A model generated the notes under the pieces. That model made no database searches. It was not told where the DNA came from and saw only the letters and a list, made by a program, of their open reading frames with translations. Below, one piece after another: positions 11,509 through 23,993 of a stretch of 23,993 nt of DNA. A program made the translations under genes and the position numbers. This stretch comes from an uncultured delta proteobacterium (GTDB lineage Bacteria; Desulfobacterota; Binatia; UBA9968): NCBI GenBank assembly GCA_963840855.1, contig CAWJBB010000004.1, positions 1 through 23,993 on the forward strand. Direction: 5' to 3'. Each line of letters opens with the position of its first letter. Position 1 is the stretch's first letter.

Positions 11509-11627
11509 ATGTCACTCCGGCGCGGTCCCCGCCGCGCAAACCGCTCTCGTTGCCGTCTTAGACTATTACTTAGACACATTTTCTGGTGCGCCAATTCTAA
11601 AATGATAAATTGACAAGACAAGATGAT

Positions 11628-11914
11628 CTCACCACGAAGTGTGTCATGAGCTTACGCTCGCCCACAGAGAATGAAAGTGGAGGATTCCCCTTCGTAGCCC
11701 GGATGGAGCAAAGCGTAATCCGGATTTCTTCATTCACGCACGCCGTTGCCTCTGCCACGCCCCATGTCACCTTCCTGGATTCCGCTTCGCTCCATCCAGG
11801 CTACAATTCTAAAGCCCATCCTCACGCCCCGTATTTTCTATAGAGGCACGAAGCGCACGACGGGTTTGGATACTATTTTCTCAAACTTCGTGACCTTCGT
11901 GGATTCGTGGTGAG
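11628..11914. repeat. Nested palindromic element: outer CACGAAG/CTTCGTG inverted repeat interrupted by a ~205-bp insert
   Basis: CTCACCACGAA (11628-11638) is the exact reverse complement of TTCGTGGTGAG (11904-11914). The left arm resumes at ~11846 (gcacgaagcgcacga). Confidence 0.7.
11694..11804. repeat. Inverted pair of GTAG-family REP sequences (REPIN-like)
   Basis: GTAGCCCGGATGGAGCAAAGCGTAATCCGG, and reverse-strand GTAGCCTGGATGGAGCGAAGCGGAATCCAGG. Confidence 0.8.
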
Positions 11915-11993
11915 TCTCCGTGCAATGATGCCGGTTTCAAAGTATGGCGATCATAGGTTATTCGCCGGCTGGATGTCCAGCAAGTAATTACGC

Positions 11994-15781: not shown

Positions 15782-17164
15782 CACTCTTGTCCAAATTAAG
15801 TTTTAGCAGTTGAGCCTCCTGTGGGTGTATATGTGGGTGATGTCGAAGTCATCCACTCAACCCACCAAAAACAAGGAGGCTCAACATGAATCGATTCTGT
15901 AGCATGTTCAGTCAAATTCTCCAACTTTTTCCTCGATCCGACTTTCAGTTGCTGGTTAAGGAGACCAAGGCCGAGAGGCATGCCCGCGGCTTTAGCTGTT
16001 GGGATCAGTTTGTCTCCATGCTGTTTTGCCAACTGGGCCGTGCCCACTCGCTTCGCGAGATCTGTAACGGGCTTTTAAGCTGTGAAGGGAAACTTTCCCA
16101 TCTAGGGATCGAGGAGGCTCCTAAACGCTCTTCGTTAGCCTATGCTAACGGACATCGTCCTTGGGAACTGTACCAAAAAGTATTTTTCGGGTTGCTTCAA
16201 CGCTGTCGCGAAGCGGGACCCTTCGCAAAGAAGTTGCGCTTTAAAAACAAGCTGGTCAGTTTAGACTCCACGGTGATTGACCTGTGCATCAGCATCTTTG
16301 ACTGGGCGCAATTTCGCCGCACCAAGGGAGCCATCAAGCTGCACTTGGTTTTGGATCACGATGGGTATCTGCCTTGTTTTGCGGTGGTCACGGAGGGAAA
16401 GGTTCATGATGTCAAGGTGGCTCACACGCTTTATTTCGAGCCGGGCACGGTGGTAGTGGATGATCGGGGCTATAATGACTACCGCTTGTTTGGTATGTGG
16501 AGCGAACAGGGAGTCTATTTTGTCACCCGCATGAAGGACAACGCCCTTTATGAAGTGATCGAGAATCGCCCGATGCCCAAAAATCGCTCTATCCTAAAGG
16601 ATCAGATCATTATTTTGAGTGGTGAGGGAGCCTGGGATAAATGTCCCTACCCATTGCGGAGAATCGAGGTATGGGACGCGGAAAAACAACAGGTTCTTGT
16701 CTTTCTCACCAATCACGATCAGTTCGCAGCCACTACCATTGCCGCCATCTATAAGGACCGCTGGCAGATTGAGTTGTTTTTCAAAGCGCTTAAGCAGAAC
16801 CTCAAGATCAAGACTTTCGTGGGAACTTCCGCCAATGCGGTTAAGATTCAAGTGTGGACGGCACTGATTGCCATGCTGGTTCTGCGCTATCTTAAGCTTA
16901 AGTCCAAGTTCTCCTGGTCGCTTTCCAATCTGGTGGCCTTGCTGCGGATGAACTTGTTCACCTATCGAGACTTGTGGGCTTGGTTGAACCAACCCTTTGG
17001 GACTCCTGCCCAAGCTGAGGCACCACACCGCCAGGAGGCTTTTTCGTTTGTCTAATTCGGACAGCACAACGGGGGTCTGGTTCTAAAAAGACAAAAACCT
17101 TGTCCAAATACGACGTAAAATCAATGGCGACTAGTCTAAACCCCGGCTAATTTGGACAGCAGTG
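15782..17164 (+). mobile_element. IS4-family insertion sequence, 1383 bp
   Basis: TIRs CACTCTTGTCCAAATTA / TAATTTGGACAGCAGTG (15 of 17); 9-bp TSD ACTTATACC at 15773-15781 and 17165-17173. Confidence 0.95.
15886..17055 (+). CDS. IS4-family DDE transposase (DUF4372 N-terminal domain + DDE_Tnp_1)
   Basis: LDSTVI, DDRGY and the YKDRWQIELFFKALKQ (YREK) signature; AAGGAGG RBS. Confidence 0.95.
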   Translation: MNRFCSMFSQILQLFPRSDFQLLVKETKAERHARGFSCWDQFVSMLFCQLGRAHSLREICNGLLSCEGKLSHLGIEEAPKRSSLAYANGHRPWELYQKVFFGLLQRCREAGPFAKKLRFKNKLVSLDSTVIDLCISIFDWAQFRRTKGAIKLHLVLDHDGYLPCFAVVTEGKVHDVKVAHTLYFEPGTVVVDDRGYNDYRLFGMWSEQGVYFVTRMKDNALYEVIENRPMPKNRSILKDQIIILSGEGAWDKCPYPLRRIEVWDAEKQQVLVFLTNHDQFAATTIAAIYKDRWQIELFFKALKQNLKIKTFVGTSANAVKIQVWTALIAMLVLRYLKLKSKFSWSLSNLVALLRMNLFTYRDLWAWLNQPFGTPAQAEAPHRQEAFSFV

Positions 17165-18030: not shown

Positions 18031-18744
18031 GTGCCAGGTTGGAAAGCGCGCATCGGTTATCTGTCGCCATCGGTTTTTGAAACGCCGTCGGACTGGGATC
18101 TCATCCTGCCGAAAGGCTTTACCATCGTCTCGTCGGGCTTGAACGTCCAAGCCCATACCACCGAAGAATTCAATAAAGCCATCGACGCGCTGGGTACCGG
18201 ACTCGGGATATTCAAAGCCGAAGAATGCGACGCCATTCTTATGGGCGGCATCACCTTGGGCACGCAGCGCGGCTACGCCGCCGAACAGGAGGTGGTCGGT
18301 AAACTGTCCAGGCAAGTCGGCTTGCCGGTGAGCACGGCCATGAACGCGACGGTGGAAGCGCTCAAGTACCTGAAAGTCAAAACTACGGTGATCGCCACAG
18401 CTTACAAAGAAGCCATCAACCAGGCCGTCAAGAAATACTACGAAGACGGTGGGGTTAAAGTTCTCGCCATCAGAGGGCTGGAAGTCTCCAAGCCGGTTGA
18501 TCAAGCCAAGCTGCCCGATTACGCTTCTTACAAAGTTGCTCGCGAACTGTTCCGCGAGCATCCCGACGTAGATAGCCTATTGATCCAAGGCCGCTGGCGC
18601 TCCGTCGCCCACGTGCAGGAACTGGAAGACGACACGCAAAGACCGGTCGTCGCCAGCACCGCGGCATCTCTCTGGTGGGTATTGCAAACCCTCGGGATGA
18701 AACCCCGCATCGAAGGCTTCGGCAAACTGTTGCGGGAATCATAG
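18031..18744 (+). CDS. Asp/Glu racemase-fold protein (maleate isomerase/arylmalonate decarboxylase-like), canonical catalytic Cys not seen
   Basis: GWKARIGYLSPS, ALKYLKVKTTVIATAY, ELEDDTQRPVVAS, GFGKLL; AAGGAG RBS with GTG start. Confidence 0.85.
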   Translation: MPGWKARIGYLSPSVFETPSDWDLILPKGFTIVSSGLNVQAHTTEEFNKAIDALGTGLGIFKAEECDAILMGGITLGTQRGYAAEQEVVGKLSRQVGLPVSTAMNATVEALKYLKVKTTVIATAYKEAINQAVKKYYEDGGVKVLAIRGLEVSKPVDQAKLPDYASYKVARELFREHPDVDSLLIQGRWRSVAHVQELEDDTQRPVVASTAASLWWVLQTLGMKPRIEGFGKLLRES

Positions 18745-19675: not shown

Positions 19676-20275
19676 CTACGCCTTAAGTGCTTCCGGGACC
19701 GGCATCTTCAGGGACGTCAAAACTTCCGCCGCCTTCGCCTTTAACGCGGTCGCCTTGGCCATCGCATCCGCCAAGTTGCCACCCTTGGAAGCGTCGGTCG
19801 CCGCGCTCCATTGCTGCGTGATCTCGGCGAGCCCCGCTTTCGCCCCGACCAGCGTTTCCGCCGTCATACCGGCAGGAAGTTTTTTGCTTTGCGACAAAAT
19901 GTCCACCCGGCTCTTGATCGCTTCCACTACCTTGGGAAACCCGGCGCTAAACCCGCTCCACGCTTTGGCGAGCTCGTCCTTCTTCGCAGCCGCAGCGCTA
20001 ACCACGTCCTTCGCCTTGGAAGTGAGCGCCGGAGCCTCGGACACGACTGCCTTGTAGTCGCTCTTGTTGAATTTCTCCCTAAGCGCGGCGAGCCCAGATT
20101 CGAGCGAGGCAACCTGGTCGGGCACATATTTGCTCGCTTCGCCTTTCGCAGCGTTGACAGCCTCCTCTGCCGCTTTGAGCGCAGTTTCGGCAGGGCCCTT
20201 ATCGCCGGCGCCGCAGCCACTCAGCAGCGCACCGATAAGAATCATGAAAAAACAATTACCAATGGACCGACGCAT
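19676..20275 (-). CDS. Ala/Lys-rich helical lipoprotein, hypothetical
   Basis: Lipobox LLSG-C after a hydrophobic stretch; GGGAGG RBS; amphipathic helices. Confidence 0.8.
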   Translation of the reverse strand: MRRSIGNCFFMILIGALLSGCGAGDKGPAETALKAAEEAVNAAKGEASKYVPDQVASLESGLAALREKFNKSDYKAVVSEAPALTSKAKDVVSAAAAKKDELAKAWSGFSAGFPKVVEAIKSRVDILSQSKKLPAGMTAETLVGAKAGLAEITQQWSAATDASKGGNLADAMAKATALKAKAAEVLTSLKMPVPEALKA

Positions 20276-20305
20276 ACATTCGCCCTCCCGTGCAGTGGTT
20301 TAAAC

Positions 20306-20542
20306 CTATGGAATTCGAAGCTTCTGGCCGACGTTAATCCGATTCGGATCTTTGAGAATGTCGCGGTTTGCTTCGAAGATTTTTGGGTACAGATTGCCGT
20401 CGCCATAGTGCTGTTCGGCGATCTTCCAGAGCGTTTCGCCTTTCTTCACTTCGTGCCACTGCGTGGCGTCGTAGGCATCGGCGCTATCTTCGGATTTTTT
20501 TTCGTCCGTCTCGGTCATTGCCCAGGGATCCTTCTCTGCCAT
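20306..20542 (-). CDS. Stand-alone LysM domain protein (similar to the Kbp/YgaU C-terminal domain)
   Basis: HEVKKGETLWKIAEQHYGDGNLYPKIFEANRDILKDPNRINVGQKLRIP; AAGGAG RBS. Confidence 0.9.
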   Translation of the reverse strand: MAEKDPWAMTETDEKKSEDSADAYDATQWHEVKKGETLWKIAEQHYGDGNLYPKIFEANRDILKDPNRINVGQKLRIP

Positions 20543-20794
20543 AAGACTCTCCTTTCTGGCGGCATAAAACCGACCTTTCTCCTTGTTAGTTAGCGAAACT
20601 ACAAGATTTTACGGTTCCAACCTTCAGAAACCACGTCCCAAACCCTTTTTCCGGGTCGATTCGTTGTCTCCAAGCATAGTTGTAAGGACCTGCTGACACT
20701 ATCAGGCACTGTACGCGCTCGGCGAGCAGCACCTAACCGCCCAACAGGAAATCCTTTGACGCCGCGACATGGTGTCGGCGGCTGCCAAACAAAA

Positions 20795-21079
20795 CTAGGC
20801 TTTCGCCATCGCGTTCTTTATGAAGCCGATGATGACCATCAAGATTCCGCCCCCGACGCCCCCACTCGCGATATTGCCGAGCAGAGAGCCGAAGTCGAGT
20901 CCTCCCCCGCCGGCAGACGCTCCCATGGCTTGAAGAATTACACCACCGAGTCCACCCCCAAGAATTCCGGCGATGGAATTGCCTAGCGTCCCCAAGCTTT
21001 GATCTTTGAGTAGCGCGCCCGCTATGTTGCCGCCGACCGCGCCGCTGATCAGATTAATAATAAGGGTTATGATGTCCAT
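20795..21079 (-). CDS. Small glycine-rich membrane protein (94 aa)
   Basis: MDIITLIINLISGAVGGNIAG...GNSIAGILGGGLGG; ATG 21079 follows AAGGAGGT. Confidence 0.8.
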   Translation of the reverse strand: MDIITLIINLISGAVGGNIAGALLKDQSLGTLGNSIAGILGGGLGGVILQAMGASAGGGGLDFGSLLGNIASGGVGGGILMVIIGFIKNAMAKA

Positions 21080-21297
21080 GAAGACCTCCTTATTTTTCTG
21101 ACTGTGTGACGTGAGACAAGGTGTGGAGTTGTTATCTGTTTGCTGAGTAAACCGGAATGGACAAAACGCCGCCATCAGGAAAACCATGGTTTGAGGGTGC
21201 GAATTTCCTTAGGCCCACCGGCCCTTGGGGACCACCTGCGTCGGCTTGTCAGAAAGAGTGCCCCGCAACAGCAGACTCGATCGACCCCGAAAAAGAT

Positions 21298-21439
21298 CTC
21301 AGTCGCCTACGTGCAGGGACTGGAAGACGACACGGGGAAGCCGGTCGTCTCCAGCACCGCCGCGTCGCTCTGGTGGGTATTGCACGCCAGGGGAATGAAA
21401 CCGCCTATCGAAGGCTTCGGCAGACTCCTGCGCGGGTAA
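21298..21439 (+). pseudogene. Orphan 3' fragment duplicating the end of the 18031-18744 gene
   Basis: SVAYVQGLEDDTGKPVVSSTAASLWWVLHARGMKPPIEGFGRLLRG* versus SVAHVQELEDDTQRPVVASTAASLWWVLQTLGMKPRIEGFGKLLRES*; 111 of 138 nt identical by hand count. Confidence 0.88.
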
Positions 21440-21480
21440 GCGCACCGTTTAGTTTTACTGGATCGCGTCCCAGCGTTTTC

Positions 21481-21564
21481 AGCAGGACAATGAGCAGCAA
21501 GCGTGTTTTGAATCGCGGTGGCCGAGGTGTTCAAAGTCCAGCGGACCGGCTAATGAGAATTTGA
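21481..21564 (+). pseudogene. intI: Relic C-terminus of an integron integrase
   Basis: SRTMSSKRVLNRGGRGVQSPADRL aligns to the IntI C-terminal signature (S/T)TTMIYTHVLNRGGRGVxSPxDxL; the catalytic Tyr position is mutated. Confidence 0.75.
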
Positions 21565-21604
21565 AAATGCGATGTCGCCTCGGGGATAGACTGCGGGCCA
21601 ATAG

Positions 21605-21730
21605 TGGGATAGGCGGCCACGCCGCCAGTAATTGCCAGAAAACGTGGCTTGACTTTCGCGTCGCAAGTAAGCGATACAGTTCAACAAATAATGTTGCAAG
21701 GCCTGCAGACCTGTTTGGGATAGGCGGCCA
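21605..21730 (+). repeat. 15-bp direct repeat TGGGATAGGCGGCCA in the intI-attI spacer
   Basis: Exact copies at 21605-21619 and 21716-21730. Confidence 0.7.
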
Positions 21731-21748
21731 ACAACGGCGCGGTCTAAA

Positions 21749-21769
21749 CGGCTCACTTAATAGTTAGCC
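21749..21769 (+). other. Putative attI site (R box GTTAGCC at 21763-21769)
   Basis: CGGCTCACTTAATA-GTTAGCC: a GTTRRRY-like core opening the first cassette, with no attC-length palindrome upstream. Confidence 0.6.
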
Positions 21770-21789
21770 GTCAGGAGAGTCGACCACCG

Positions 21790-22389
21790 GTGTCCGACAG
21801 AAAGAAGAAATTCGGTGAGCGCGCCACAAGACTCAAGCGAGCGCTCGCGAACGAACAGAAGAAGTACCGCCATATTGAGGACGGTGCAGGGAAACGCTAC
21901 TTGATCGGACCATTTTATGTTCTTGCGGGGGAGTTGAAAAAGGCTCTCGCGCACTACGACTGGTACGAGAAGCACTGTTCGGATGACGTTGGTGAGCCCA
22001 TCCACTACCTTTACTGGGCGTTGGCGCTCTACCGGACTGGCGAGACCAAAAAAGCGACCGCCAAACTTCTTGAAACGATGCTGCAGAACGTCTACCTCTT
22101 GCCAATACTGCTCGGGGCGCCGCCCGATTCGTACGACATCTGGCATGGCTCGAACATGGAACAGCCAGATTACATCACAGAAGCCCCACCGGACTTCCTA
22201 CCTCAGCTGTCGGAGCAGGAGCGTTCGTGGATTGCGGAACAGTTCGACAGTTTTCGCTTCAGGCGCGCTCGCGAAGAGTACGTGGCGACGTACCGCGCGC
22301 TAAAGTATGAAAAGAACGTCGATAACCGACGGCAGATTTTGAGGCGCTGGAATGAGTTCTTGGCTCAGTCGGCAACGATTGACGGCTAA
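21790..22389 (+). CDS. Cassette 1: helical TPR-like hypothetical protein
   Basis: AGGAG upstream; helical pattern GELKKALAHYDWY...YLYWALALYRTGETKKATAKL; the stop codon lies inside the attC R'' box. Confidence 0.75.
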   Translation: MSDRKKKFGERATRLKRALANEQKKYRHIEDGAGKRYLIGPFYVLAGELKKALAHYDWYEKHCSDDVGEPIHYLYWALALYRTGETKKATAKLLETMLQNVYLLPILLGAPPDSYDIWHGSNMEQPDYITEAPPDFLPQLSEQERSWIAEQFDSFRFRRAREEYVATYRALKYEKNVDNRRQILRRWNEFLAQSATIDG

Positions 22390-22446
22390 CATTGCCGTCA
22401 ACGGCGACGGGCCGCAAGCGGTCCGCGCGTTACCTCGACGTTAGCC
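22384..22446 (+). mobile_element. attC site 1 (63 bp)
   Basis: R'' GGCTAAC ... R' GTTAGCC, with imperfect inner palindrome gtcaacggcgacgggccgc-aa-gcggtccgcgcgttac. GACGGCTAAC is the exact reverse complement of the cassette start GTTAGCCGTC. Confidence 0.9.
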
Positions 22447-22470
22447 AGACCAGATTCCCGAGAGACCATC

Positions 22471-23340
22471 GTGACGTCGCTTGACCCTTTCGAGATCGTA
22501 GCATCCGCGCTGACCGCTCGCGCGTTTCTTGAGCCCCTTGGTCCACCGCTACGCGTCGATATGACCTTCGATCAAGCCAACGATCTTCTCGTGTCTGCTT
22601 GGGATGCATCTGACTTCGCATATGAGCCCGTGGATCGAGTCTCATTAGTTTACAGACAAACGCAGCTTGCCGGGTGGTACTCGATGGATATGTATGACAG
22701 CGATCTCGATATCATTGGGGAAGTCGTGCATCCGATTCATCCAGATGAGATTGCCTCAGCCGATACACCGGCCCTCAAGCTCGTTCATATCCTCGCTGAG
22801 CGTCCCAGAAGTGGAATCATCGTCTTTGTACTCGAAGAGGATGCTATCGTAGGCACAGTCTCACCCGAAATGTTTTGGGGGCCTGTCTTTCGCCTGTGTC
22901 TGTTTGCCCTTACGCTCGAACTCGAGGGCGCGGCAGTTGCAGCTGCCATGCGGCATCCTCTAGCGTCGTGGAATGCATTGTCCCCCGGCCGTCGGGCGAA
23001 GGCGGAGGAGATTCGGAAGCGCCTTTGCTCTGCCGAGCATCGTAACAGGCCGTTGATGCATGAAAGAGCACCGCTTGGTCCACTCTTGGCGACCACCTCG
23101 TTTGCTGACAAAGGAACGATTGTCGCAAAGACGAAGCTTTTGGAGGGCTGGACGCTCGACGGCGTTAAATCTCTGTTCGGTCGGGCAGAAAGAGTACGGA
23201 ACTCGTGTGCGCATACTCGAGATACAGTCGACGCGCCGCTCGGGCGCGATGCCAAGGGGGTAGCGGACTTTGTCGATTTATGCACCCGCGCTATCGCGGG
23301 ACTTCGAACGACACAGAGAGATGGCACTGAAGCTGGCTAA
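22471..23340 (+). CDS. Cassette 2: degenerate CBS-pair plus C-terminal HEPN-like domain protein
   Basis: CBS-like segments (LTARAFLEPL, ASADTPALKLVHIL, FVLEEDAIVGTVS); helical C-terminus LFALTLELE...SFADK...ERVRNSCAH (Rx4H); stop inside the attC R'' box. Confidence 0.68.
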   Translation: MTSLDPFEIVASALTARAFLEPLGPPLRVDMTFDQANDLLVSAWDASDFAYEPVDRVSLVYRQTQLAGWYSMDMYDSDLDIIGEVVHPIHPDEIASADTPALKLVHILAERPRSGIIVFVLEEDAIVGTVSPEMFWGPVFRLCLFALTLELEGAAVAAAMRHPLASWNALSPGRRAKAEEIRKRLCSAEHRNRPLMHERAPLGPLLATTSFADKGTIVAKTKLLEGWTLDGVKSLFGRAERVRNSCAHTRDTVDAPLGRDAKGVADFVDLCTRAIAGLRTTQRDGTEAG

Positions 23341-23415
23341 CAATCGGCTTGAAACGGATCTTCGGACTCGCTCGCTTCGCTCGCTGGCCTCGTCCGTTCA
23401 GCCTTAGTGTTAGCT
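23335..23415 (+). mobile_element. attC site 2 (81 bp)
   Basis: R'' GGCTAAC ... R' GTTAGCT; L arms ggcttgaaacgga / tccgttcagcc with unpaired bases. CTGGCTAAC complements the cassette start GTTAGCCAG. Confidence 0.9.
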
Positions 23416-23453
23416 CTCGGGACGCAAGGTCGCGCCGTAAACCCACGTCGGGT

Positions 23454-23482
23454 TTGCAATATATGCATCATATGCATACACT
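23454..23482 (+). promoter_or_regulatory. Sigma70 promoter with an overlapping operator for the TA cassette
   Basis: TTGCAA-N17-TACACT, with two ATATGCAT copies (23461-23468, 23470-23477) in the spacer. Confidence 0.7.
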
Positions 23483-23488
23483 TGTCTG

Positions 23489-23761
23489 GTGACCGCCATC
23501 TTTGACCCCAAGAAGGACGCCGCAAATCTCAAGAAGCATGGTGCCTCTCTTACCGAAGGCGACGGAGTCTTGAGCGACCCACTGGCGGTGACGATTGAAG
23601 ATAAATCGGCTGAGGGAGAGCAACGGTTTGTCACTCTCGGCACAAACACGTTCGGTTCCCTTAGAGTTGTGGTCTGGACTCCTCGGGACGACGACTTTCG
23701 CATAATCTCGGTTCGGAAACCGACACGGAAGGAAAGAAGAACATATGAAGAAGGAGTATAA
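23489..23761 (+). CDS. brnT: Cassette 3: BrnT family toxin
   Basis: FDPKKDAANLKKHG...EGEQRFVTLG...VVVWTPRDDDFRIISVRKPTRKERRTY. Confidence 0.92.
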   Translation: MTAIFDPKKDAANLKKHGASLTEGDGVLSDPLAVTIEDKSAEGEQRFVTLGTNTFGSLRVVVWTPRDDDFRIISVRKPTRKERRTYEEGV

Positions 23762-23993
23762 TTTTTCCAAGGGCAAACGCGGAGCGGTGATTCCCCAGGT
23801 TGGGAAGACGCGCATCACTATCTATCTCGACGATGCGATCTTGAAGCGTTTCAAGGCTGAGTCCGAGAGAACCGGGAAAGGGTATCAAACCCTCATCAAC
23901 GATGTACTCAACTCCTACCTGGGTCTGAGGGAGAAGCCCCTTACGGCAGAGATGGTGCGCAAGATCGTTCGCGAAGAGCTTTCTGCTCAAAAC
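23745..23993 (+). CDS. brnA: BrnA family (RHH) antitoxin, runs off the window edge
   Basis: Not in the ORF track. MKKEYNFSKGKRGAVIPQVGKTRITIYLDDAILKRFKAESERTGKGYQTLINDVLNSYL...; overlaps the brnT end by 17 nt. Confidence 0.9.
   Translation, partial: MKKEYNFSKGKRGAVIPQVGKTRITIYLDDAILKRFKAESERTGKGYQTLINDVLNSYLGLREKPLTAEMVRKIVREELSAQN

Follow-up and report, generated by a model that had tools for sequence, protein, structure and literature searches.

A probable relic integron of the inverted-integrase kind in an uncultured Binatia bacterium

Sedentary chromosomal integrons of the Vibrio type have large arrays, homogeneous attC repeats, and toxin-antitoxin cassettes, and the attI1 site of class 1 integrons consists of a simple site (L and R boxes) together with the direct repeats DR1 and DR2. 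An inverted integron-integrase group is known from Treponema and other bacteria (Cury et al. 2016, PMC4889954; Wu et al. 2013, PMC3607928). The group is described as paraphyletic in the section of Cury et al. that deals with it (PMC4889954), and the part of the Treponema paper concerned with attI presents these sites as hard to predict (PMC3607928). In their treatment of attC site clusters that have no integron-integrase (CALIN), Cury et al. propose loss of the integrase gene, intI, from a complete integron as one origin of such clusters, and they report a recognizable intI pseudogene near 15 of 279 CALIN, the screen having needed >50% profile coverage (PMC4889954). Our literature search found no paper naming both "Binatia" and "integron." Here we describe a locus of this general kind in a window that comprises the entire 23,993-bp contig C4 (55.8% G+C) of an uncultured soil or sediment bacterium of the Binatia.

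The locus consists of the 3' end of an intI gene, an attI site, and a cassette array with two attC sites (Table 1). We assign a probability of about 0.9 to the view that a chromosomal integron of the inverted-integrase type, in a Binatia host, left this remnant, which makes it a relic of a kind already known. Its cassettes, as in integrons of the Treponema denticola type, are made of an open reading frame (ORF) plus attC, are chromosomal, and carry genes of no known function. Unlike those integrons, it has only 27 codons of intI, its host belongs to the Binatia, and its attI is defined by comparison, with matches in 44 of 90 family genomes, a difference to be read against what the Treponema paper says in its part on attI. 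The likeness to the inverted group is one of layout.

The intI stub was recognized with a full-length relative IntI, a 352-codon ORF from the related genome G086 (locus L015) that scores 462.4 bits on TIGR02249 (cut-off 265) and matches all 315 model positions. When this protein was compared with the whole window by tblastn, the sole significant match lay at 21481-21561 (43.1 bits, E 2e-7, 21 of 27 residues identical), and the next-best match had an E value of 0.054. The translated stub, SRTMSSKRVLNRGGRGVQSPADRLMRI, aligns to IntI residues 326-352 of 352. A preliminary description of this DNA had proposed an IntI C-terminal remnant on the + strand that lost its catalytic tyrosine, and both proposals are borne out. 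The remnant has 27 codons and a stop, and the catalytic Tyr of MIYTHV is aligned to the second Ser of MSSKRV, encoded at 21496-21498. Thus, the intact intI that marks a complete integron is absent; only residues 326-352 are represented, and the catalytic residue is replaced.

Nucleotide comparisons agree with this alignment. Six loci with full or partial intI share 51-58 of the 59 nucleotides at 21506-21564. The preceding 28 nucleotides (21478-21505) share 16-20 with the same loci, degraded but in register, and an in-register match of 20 of 28 has a chance P of 3e-7 at p = 0.25. Farther upstream, at 21443-21477, identity to intI is about 45-55%, near chance level. The earlier suggestion that the remnant had decayed after its truncation holds for the 28 nucleotides before 21506 (20 of 28) but not for the last 59, of which 58 are found in an intact relative. 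The genes giving the 21-of-27 residue and 58-of-59 nucleotide matches score 454-462 bits on TIGR02249, and by these alignments the stub is homologous to IntI specifically, not to another tyrosine recombinase.

Behind the stub lies a spacer of 198 bp that ends in a GTTAGCC core, as the preliminary description had indicated with its figure of about 200 bp. Crossover is expected between G21763 and T21764. The spacer contains three direct repeats of GGGATAG(A/G)CNGC, at 21583, 21606, and 21717, against 0.01 expected in the window; the repeat contains GATAGGC, one base off the core GTTAGGC. An inverted core-like sequence, GGTCTAAAC, occupies 21741-21749. A DNA search of 90 family genomes found attI matches in the 44 genomes mentioned, and the stronger matches stop at query positions 324-334, which correspond to window positions 21763-21773. 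In an alignment of 13 loci (A1), the boxes TTGACTT (21649-21655) and ATAC (21674-21677), the GGGATAGGCGGCC repeats, and CTAAAC..GCTCACTTAATAGTT are invariant, and likeness ends at GTT, with the following bases differing in every one of the 13 loci. Three attI copies occur in the genome of the window itself: the one described here, one on contig C21 behind half an integrase gene (TIGR02249 model positions 169-315), and one standing alone at C21:27012-27199. These three also diverge directly after GTTAG.

A spacer conserved up to the crossover point and followed by unrelated cassettes is the signature expected of attI. Judged by these alignments, the region is a putative attI site adjoining the intI remnant, with crossover in the GTT core and unrelated first cassettes behind it. 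The GGGATAG repeats may be accessory integrase-binding sites, and the TTGACTT and ATAC boxes look like a promoter, perhaps one for cassettes. The site appears to resemble attI1 in its GTTAG core at the crossover, its inverted core-like box upstream, and its core-resembling direct repeats (GATAGGC versus GTTAGGC). Unlike attI1, to which it has no sequence homology, it is 3' and not 5' of intI, and its spacings differ (13 nucleotides from inverted box to core). With a sharp crossover, core-like repeats, and invariant boxes, the locus gives an environmental integron clade an attI that is comparatively well defined.

Two attI copies elsewhere deserve mention in their own right. The copy at C21:27012-27199 (L011) has no integrase remnant in front of it and no attC detected within 7 kb behind it, and an ORF with its own ribosome-binding site begins just past the core. 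In G086 (L015 and L034) and G082 (L019), the same sequence, GAACTAAACCGCTTCGCGG…, stands immediately past the attI GTT. Next to it in G086 come a 288-aa tyrosine recombinase and then a 395-aa ORF that we suspect to be an IS91-type transposase. The attI core of these genomes seems to have received a mobile element.

To the right of attI, the attC sites were examined with a covariance model of our own (R1; distinct from that of IntegronFinder), built from 16 attC sites in arrays on contigs C21, C26, and C58 and in five relatives, none of them from the window. In the R1 alignment, 85.2% of cells are paired, seven pairs have changed on both sides, and the covariation score was reached by 0 of 500 shuffles. 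With filters off, R1 finds only two significant sites in the 24-kb window, both on the + strand, and no further hit better than E 0.6. These are the two sites of the preliminary description. The first, attC1, scores 26.2 bits (E 1.8e-4) on the + strand and 11.4 bits on the other; attC2 scores 69.9 bits (E 7.3e-15) and 10.3 bits, respectively. With its R boxes forced to pair, attC1 forms one imperfect hairpin of 23 pairs (-14.0 kcal/mol). The bottom strand of attC2, freely folded, has its R boxes and L boxes paired, with one bulged T.

The boxes are also improbable as a chance occurrence. The 7.1-Mb genome contains 182 TAAC...GTTA pairs at 47-147 bp with 6 of 6 complementary box positions, so that 0.064 are expected in 2.5 kb and the P for two is about 0.002. 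Moreover, complementarity over 11 bp links the start of cassette 1 (21763-21773) with 22380-22390, and complementarity over 9 bp links that of cassette 2 (22440-22448) with 23333-23341, as expected after crossover between G and TT. Complementarity between each cassette start and its own R'' had been noted before: the length given for cassette 2 was right, and that for cassette 1 is 11 bp, not 10. The TAA stops of both cassette ORFs fall within GGCTAAC boxes. The locus thus carries no fewer than two attC sites on the same strand inside 4 kb, which is what defines an array or a CALIN, and the ORF-attC-ORF-attC order proposed earlier is found at or within a few bases of where it had been placed.

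Table 1. Features of the integron locus and its left flank, in window coordinates
Feature	Position	Strand	Details
Decarboxylase fragment	21298..21439	+	3' end, last ~45 codons and TAA; arylmalonate-decarboxylase family
intI 3' remnant	21478..21564	+	27 codons 21481-21561, stop 21562-21564
attI	21565..21769	+	198-bp spacer 21565-21762; core GTTAGCC 21763-21769
Cassette 1	21764..22440	+	ORF 21790-22389 (199 aa) and attC1
attC1	22384-22446	+	GGCTAAC...GTTAGCC, 63 bp; R1 hit 22379-22451
Cassette 2	22441..23409	+	ORF 22471-23340 (289 aa) and attC2
attC2	23335-23415	+	R'' GGCTAAC, R' GTTAGCT, 81 bp; R1 hit 23330-23420
Cassette 3 (incomplete)	23410..23993	+	brnT 23489-23761; brnA 23745 to beyond 23993

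The + strand carries the stub, attI, both attC sites, and every cassette ORF. Hence intI is on the strand of the attC sites and ORFs, with attI 3' of intI, the arrangement that distinguishes an inverted integrase, and a full intI, attI, and attC are likewise on one strand in the related genome G052. We applied R1 to 80 loci around related intI genes from many phyla and obtained 69 hits in 30 loci. In 18 of these, all hits are downstream on the integrase strand; in the other 12, which to judge by record titles are mostly from Proteobacteria, all are upstream on the opposite strand, as is classical. Because every one of the 69 hits fits one of these two rules, the strand calls of R1 are meaningful. 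Among the nearest relatives of this integrase, the same-direction layout is therefore the commoner one (18 of 30). The statement in the preliminary description that co-oriented integrases are less common applies to classical integrons, as the part of Cury et al. (2016) on integron layout has it, but not to these relatives.

Several results weigh against our interpretation of the locus. The attC1 site is weak: at 26.2 bits it misses E 0.01 in a whole-genome search, left to fold freely it favors a rival local hairpin in which R'' is buried, and cassette 1 copies in other metagenomes (runs X2 and X13, below) lose similarity about 10 nucleotides into it. The high score of attC2 partly reflects near-identity, since the site is 92% identical to one R1 seed. 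Folding z values for the bottom strands of the two sites, -1.21 and -1.67, are not significant against shuffles, and the R boxes of both sites are off the RYYYAAC/GTTRRRY consensus at one position. Both the attI comparison and R1 rest on related Binatia sequences. A consensus scan of 21400-21800 reports no sigma-70-type promoter in attI. The stub peptide alone (28-39 residues) finds nothing in NCBIfam or among PDB sequences because it is too short. Finally, no public run contains more than 23% of sampled words from 21100-23993 (best share, 0.23), no RNA run was listed for this stretch, and none from the source sample turned up, so that reads do not confirm the junction at 21324-21505.

Other approaches to attC detection were tried and set aside. 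The textbook attC R-box consensus is RYYYAAC/GTTRRRY, and pattern scans based on it failed at both window sites because these have the boxes GGCTAAC/GTTAGCC. We also dropped a hand-written stem scorer, which gave no hit even where sites were known. A genome-wide scan for AAC...GTT hairpins with constrained folding was unspecific (14,996 candidates, of which 356 passed, mostly ordinary palindromes), and its sole use was in spotting more GGCTAAC-type sites on C26. Folding energy does not discriminate attC sites (z of -0.9 to -2.4). A search of Rfam over 20000-23993 gave no attC family or other relevant match, and a snoRNA match at E 0.24 was taken as chance.

Further attC sites were observed elsewhere in the genome: six on C26 (10259-19778), four on C58 (58768-67561), and one each at C27:176950 and C85:137522. 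With no integrase nearby, these are additional CALIN-like arrays.

The state of intI in relatives places the window in a series. We examined 21 other attI loci, picked as the best matches in DNA; because the query contained the intI tail, the proportions that follow are biased. Full-length intI in the same direction directly before the spacer, which the preliminary description suggested looking for in related genomes, is present at 5 of 21 (G086, G057, G031, G052, and the unpublished G040). Two more have an intI part of at least 150 aa, two (G030 and G051) have only the tail, as in the window, nine have no remnant, and three are cut by contig ends. A family search with TIGR02249 found IntI above the cut-off in 33 of 90 genomes; its 84 rows include 28 full-length genes without stops and approximately 17 fragments that are C-terminal only. 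Stubs and C-terminal fragments together indicate that members of this family have repeatedly lost intI from the 5' side while retaining its 3' end and attI.

The window is at the far end of this series of intI loss. Together with its relatives, it forms a clean graded series from intact integrase to half gene, 27-codon stub, and attI alone. The series shows one route from integron to CALIN, the last stages of which would escape standard screens. The parts of this analysis worth keeping are the attI conserved across the family and the graded loss of integrase. As a separate observation, the otherwise full-length intI of L023 (G052) has an in-frame insertion of eight codons, TTMILRLRSGQVYTHV, directly before the catalytic Tyr.

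Intact relatives show intI first, next an attI of about 200 bp ending in the GTTAG core, and after it cassettes that each carry a terminal attC hairpin. By the mechanism that we consider, circular cassettes would be inserted by IntI through recombination of the folded attC bottom strand with attI, between G and TT of the core. In this contig, a deletion or rearrangement probably removed all of intI but its last 27 codons, with loss of the catalytic tyrosine, and left attI and the array behind. With intI reduced to a stub that lacks this tyrosine, the locus cannot move its own cassettes. Most likely, then, the array stays frozen unless an integrase reaches it from another source, and its toxin-antitoxin cassette may contribute to keeping it where it is.

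No intact integrase was seen in this genome (94% complete), and TIGR02249 gives zero matches to the window even at E <= 10. The only integrase above the cut-off is on contig C1 (model positions 1-298 of 315); it lacks a normal C-terminus and ends …MIYYAQTVVMRSEVP right after the catalytic Tyr. The C21 copy is without its N-terminal half. It is possible that an integrase is encoded in the missing 6% of the genome or arrives by transfer.

The surroundings of the C1 gene are unusual. At G000:C1:42288-46880 (loci L013, L001, L005, and L007), intI is turned toward three tyrosine-recombinase ORFs arranged in tandem on the other strand. Past these, a second intI C-terminal fragment ends …MVYYAQWMVM, and TATTATGCGCAG is found at both junctions. 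This looks like a three-recombinase mobile element inserted into the C1 intI. We considered whether the degraded block 21478-21505 of the window could be linked to this element and rejected the idea; the junction sequences are unrelated.

The same anatomy would be seen if the locus were not dead but an orphan platform of attI plus array, kept by selection and served in trans, whose cassettes are still inserted, excised, and expressed. This explanation, which differs from a relic integron in current activity only, is in our estimation unlikely. In its general form, the Binatia integron would be a distributed system of orphan attI platforms, several per genome, which would outlast their own integrase genes because they remain in use, acting as docking and expression sites for one resident or incoming IntI, an idea we regard as just as doubtful. 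The orphan-platform explanation gains from the conservation shared with G086, which belongs to another genus of the family (58 of 59 nucleotides of the intI tail and 163 of 185 of attI), although such conservation may reflect recent common descent or transfer. Orphan attI sites are indeed numerous, with four matches each in G086, G057, and G005, and at 9 of 19 attI loci, including 4 that did not serve as model seeds, an attC lies no more than 1.5 kb downstream on the strand of attI. IntI above the cut-off, as noted, occurs in 33 of 90 family genomes, and mobilization of CALIN cassettes in trans is raised in the discussion of CALIN by Cury et al. (2016, PMC4889954). However, both integrase copies of this genome are incomplete, and the attI sequence of the window is not found near the C1 gene. 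If the distributed arrangement were true, the graded series of 5'-truncated intI genes would mean that selection keeps attI and the array while shedding redundant integrases.

Within the stub, identity to intI changes sharply at 21505/21506, from 20 of 28 nucleotides to 58 of 59; at 5% divergence, at least eight mismatches in 28 nucleotides have a P of about 5e-5. Contigs from run X2 in which intI reads intact align to the window from 21506 only. The step could come from decay in place, from filler DNA where a deletion was joined, or from the end point of a recombination. The last of these would apply if the integrase tail and attI had been copied or moved in as a unit, by homologous recombination or with a mobile element. 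The three attI copies in the genome and the two 5'-truncated gene fragments in series before attI would fit such a history, but we hold it to be improbable. Relic copies elsewhere start at many points (query positions 25 to about 193), which fits independent deletions and not fixed ends; the 28 nucleotides before 21506 still match intI in register; and no transposase or terminal repeats were seen at the stub junction.

The first of the two truncated fragments, that of a decarboxylase gene (Table 1), lies outside the integron. It is 82% identical over 135 nucleotides to 18600-18734 (blastn), within an intact paralogue at 18031-18744, and matches Pfam Amdase at E 3.5e-4 over profile positions 187-228 of 228. 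Its presence in front of the stub indicates that the DNA upstream of the stub was rearranged, and two 5'-truncated genes in series indicate more than one rearrangement. A common gene upstream of intI was looked for in a relative and the idea was rejected: G086 has amidohydrolase-like ORFs there, not a member of the decarboxylase family.

The left flank also bears on whether the contig was correctly assembled. The genome is metagenome-assembled in 93 contigs, with 8% contamination, and contigs C14 and C50 duplicate the window at mostly 98-99% identity (93% across the last 0.8 kb). Likeness to C14 reaches 10502. That to C50 reaches, with gaps, approximately 21323, the two being collinear to this point (93-98% identical) before they diverge. 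These near-copies indicate that several close strains were binned together. Past the divergence, C50 has ordinary chromosomal genes and R1 finds no attC site there, so the integron is strain-specific and variable between strains; no second copy of the C50 downstream region was found in the genome.

Such a bin could in principle yield a false truncation, with C4 a chimera of a chromosomal stretch and an integron end from another strain or organism. The three overlapping contigs, the parting of C4 and C50 at about 21323, the contamination, and the failure to find a run from the source sample all leave room for this, but we think it very unlikely. The stub adjoins the decarboxylase fragment inside the part unique to C4 (21324-23993), there is no repeat at 21440-21505 to mislead an assembler, and the decarboxylase fragment is, at 82%, too diverged from its paralogue for a k-mer mis-join. 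Comparable tail-only stubs exist in G030 and G051. Even a wrong join at 21323 would leave a truncated intI with attI and array.

With a minimum of two attC sites but no intact intI, the locus formally counts as a CALIN. It resembles those CALIN that have an intI pseudogene nearby, as Cury et al. (2016) present them, in the presence of two attC sites or more and the absence of a functional intI, and differs from the CALIN definition in that publication's section on them in its recognizable attI. Its stub would be missed by the >50% coverage required in the pseudogene screen given there. It is plausible, because of this coverage requirement in the IntegronFinder pseudogene screen, that the program would call the locus a CALIN. 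A CALIN could also have arisen here through cassette insertion at a secondary, non-attI site that was never an integron platform, which would satisfy the same definition (PMC4889954). We give this next to no credence: in front of the array stand the conserved attI of the family and the final 27 intI codons, ordered and oriented as in intact relatives.

The preliminary description counted at least three cassettes in this relic integron; two are complete, and the third is represented by its start and cut by the contig end. The 199-aa protein of cassette 1 matches no Pfam or NCBIfam family, and the Atlas yields only TPR-like leads. The 289-aa protein of cassette 2 matches no Pfam family; in the Atlas it comes closest to clusters that bear CBS domains or have RiboL-PSP-HEPN names, and its RNSCAH motif is a lead, and only that, toward the HEPN kind. 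Cassette 3 encodes brnT and brnA, a type II toxin-antitoxin pair (Pfam BrnT_toxin, 82 bits against a cut-off of 34.5; BrnA_antitoxin, 39.1 bits against 26.1). Like sedentary integrons of the Vibrio type, the locus is chromosomal, has cassettes of mostly unknown function, and includes a type II toxin-antitoxin cassette in its array. Unlike them, its attC sites are dissimilar (63 and 81 bp) and its integrase points the opposite way, and the array, for comparison with theirs, is visible only to the contig end. There are no resistance genes at the locus, which has no clinical bearing.

Just before brnT, at 23450-23488, a palindrome ATATGCAT-C-ATATGCAT is placed between TTGCAA and TACACT. From its sequence and position, this region is probably the promoter and operator of cassette 3 itself; the consensus promoter scan did not report it. 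The genome was also searched for the R'' of cassette 3 beyond 23993, and the three forward hits obtained were not attC-like ends of this cassette; the search turned up no continuation of the array in the genome.

Evidence that these cassettes are modular comes from contigs of four metagenome runs, belonging to four studies, that were compared with 21100-23993; one contig each from X2 and X13 extends past an end of this stretch. A 944-nucleotide contig from X2 matches 21763-22400 at about 96% between unlike flanks, and a 1085-nucleotide contig from X13 matches 21752-22395, also with unlike flanks. A 1112-nucleotide contig from X3 begins to match at 22440 exactly, behind a dissimilar attC-like sequence, and an X13 contig begins to match at 23409. 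The attC2 core (23338-23404) recurs in many contigs, where it leads into various GTTAG junctions and then unrelated sequence, and contigs from other metagenomes that cover attI diverge after 21765. The break points, 21763 (X2), 21752 (X13), 22440 (X3), and 23404-23409, coincide with the predicted crossover points, which implies that the context of the cassettes changes there in nature. The cassettes would accordingly seem to be independent mobile units bounded at the G/TT of their R' boxes. Separately, the inner part of attC1 (22395-22446) differs between cassette 1 copies that are otherwise 96-98% identical.

Two other repeated sequences were observed in the window, to the left of the integron. 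An element of approximately 230-290 bp at 11625-11916 has copies, 84-96% identical, on at least nine other contigs (C30, C79, C67, C7, C45, C81, C2, C32, and C17) and may be a miniature mobile element or the end of an insertion sequence. A 1.38-kb segment at 15782-17164, spanning a 389-aa ORF, recurs with 99% identity on the opposite strand at C39:59183-60563; it may be a two-copy insertion sequence.

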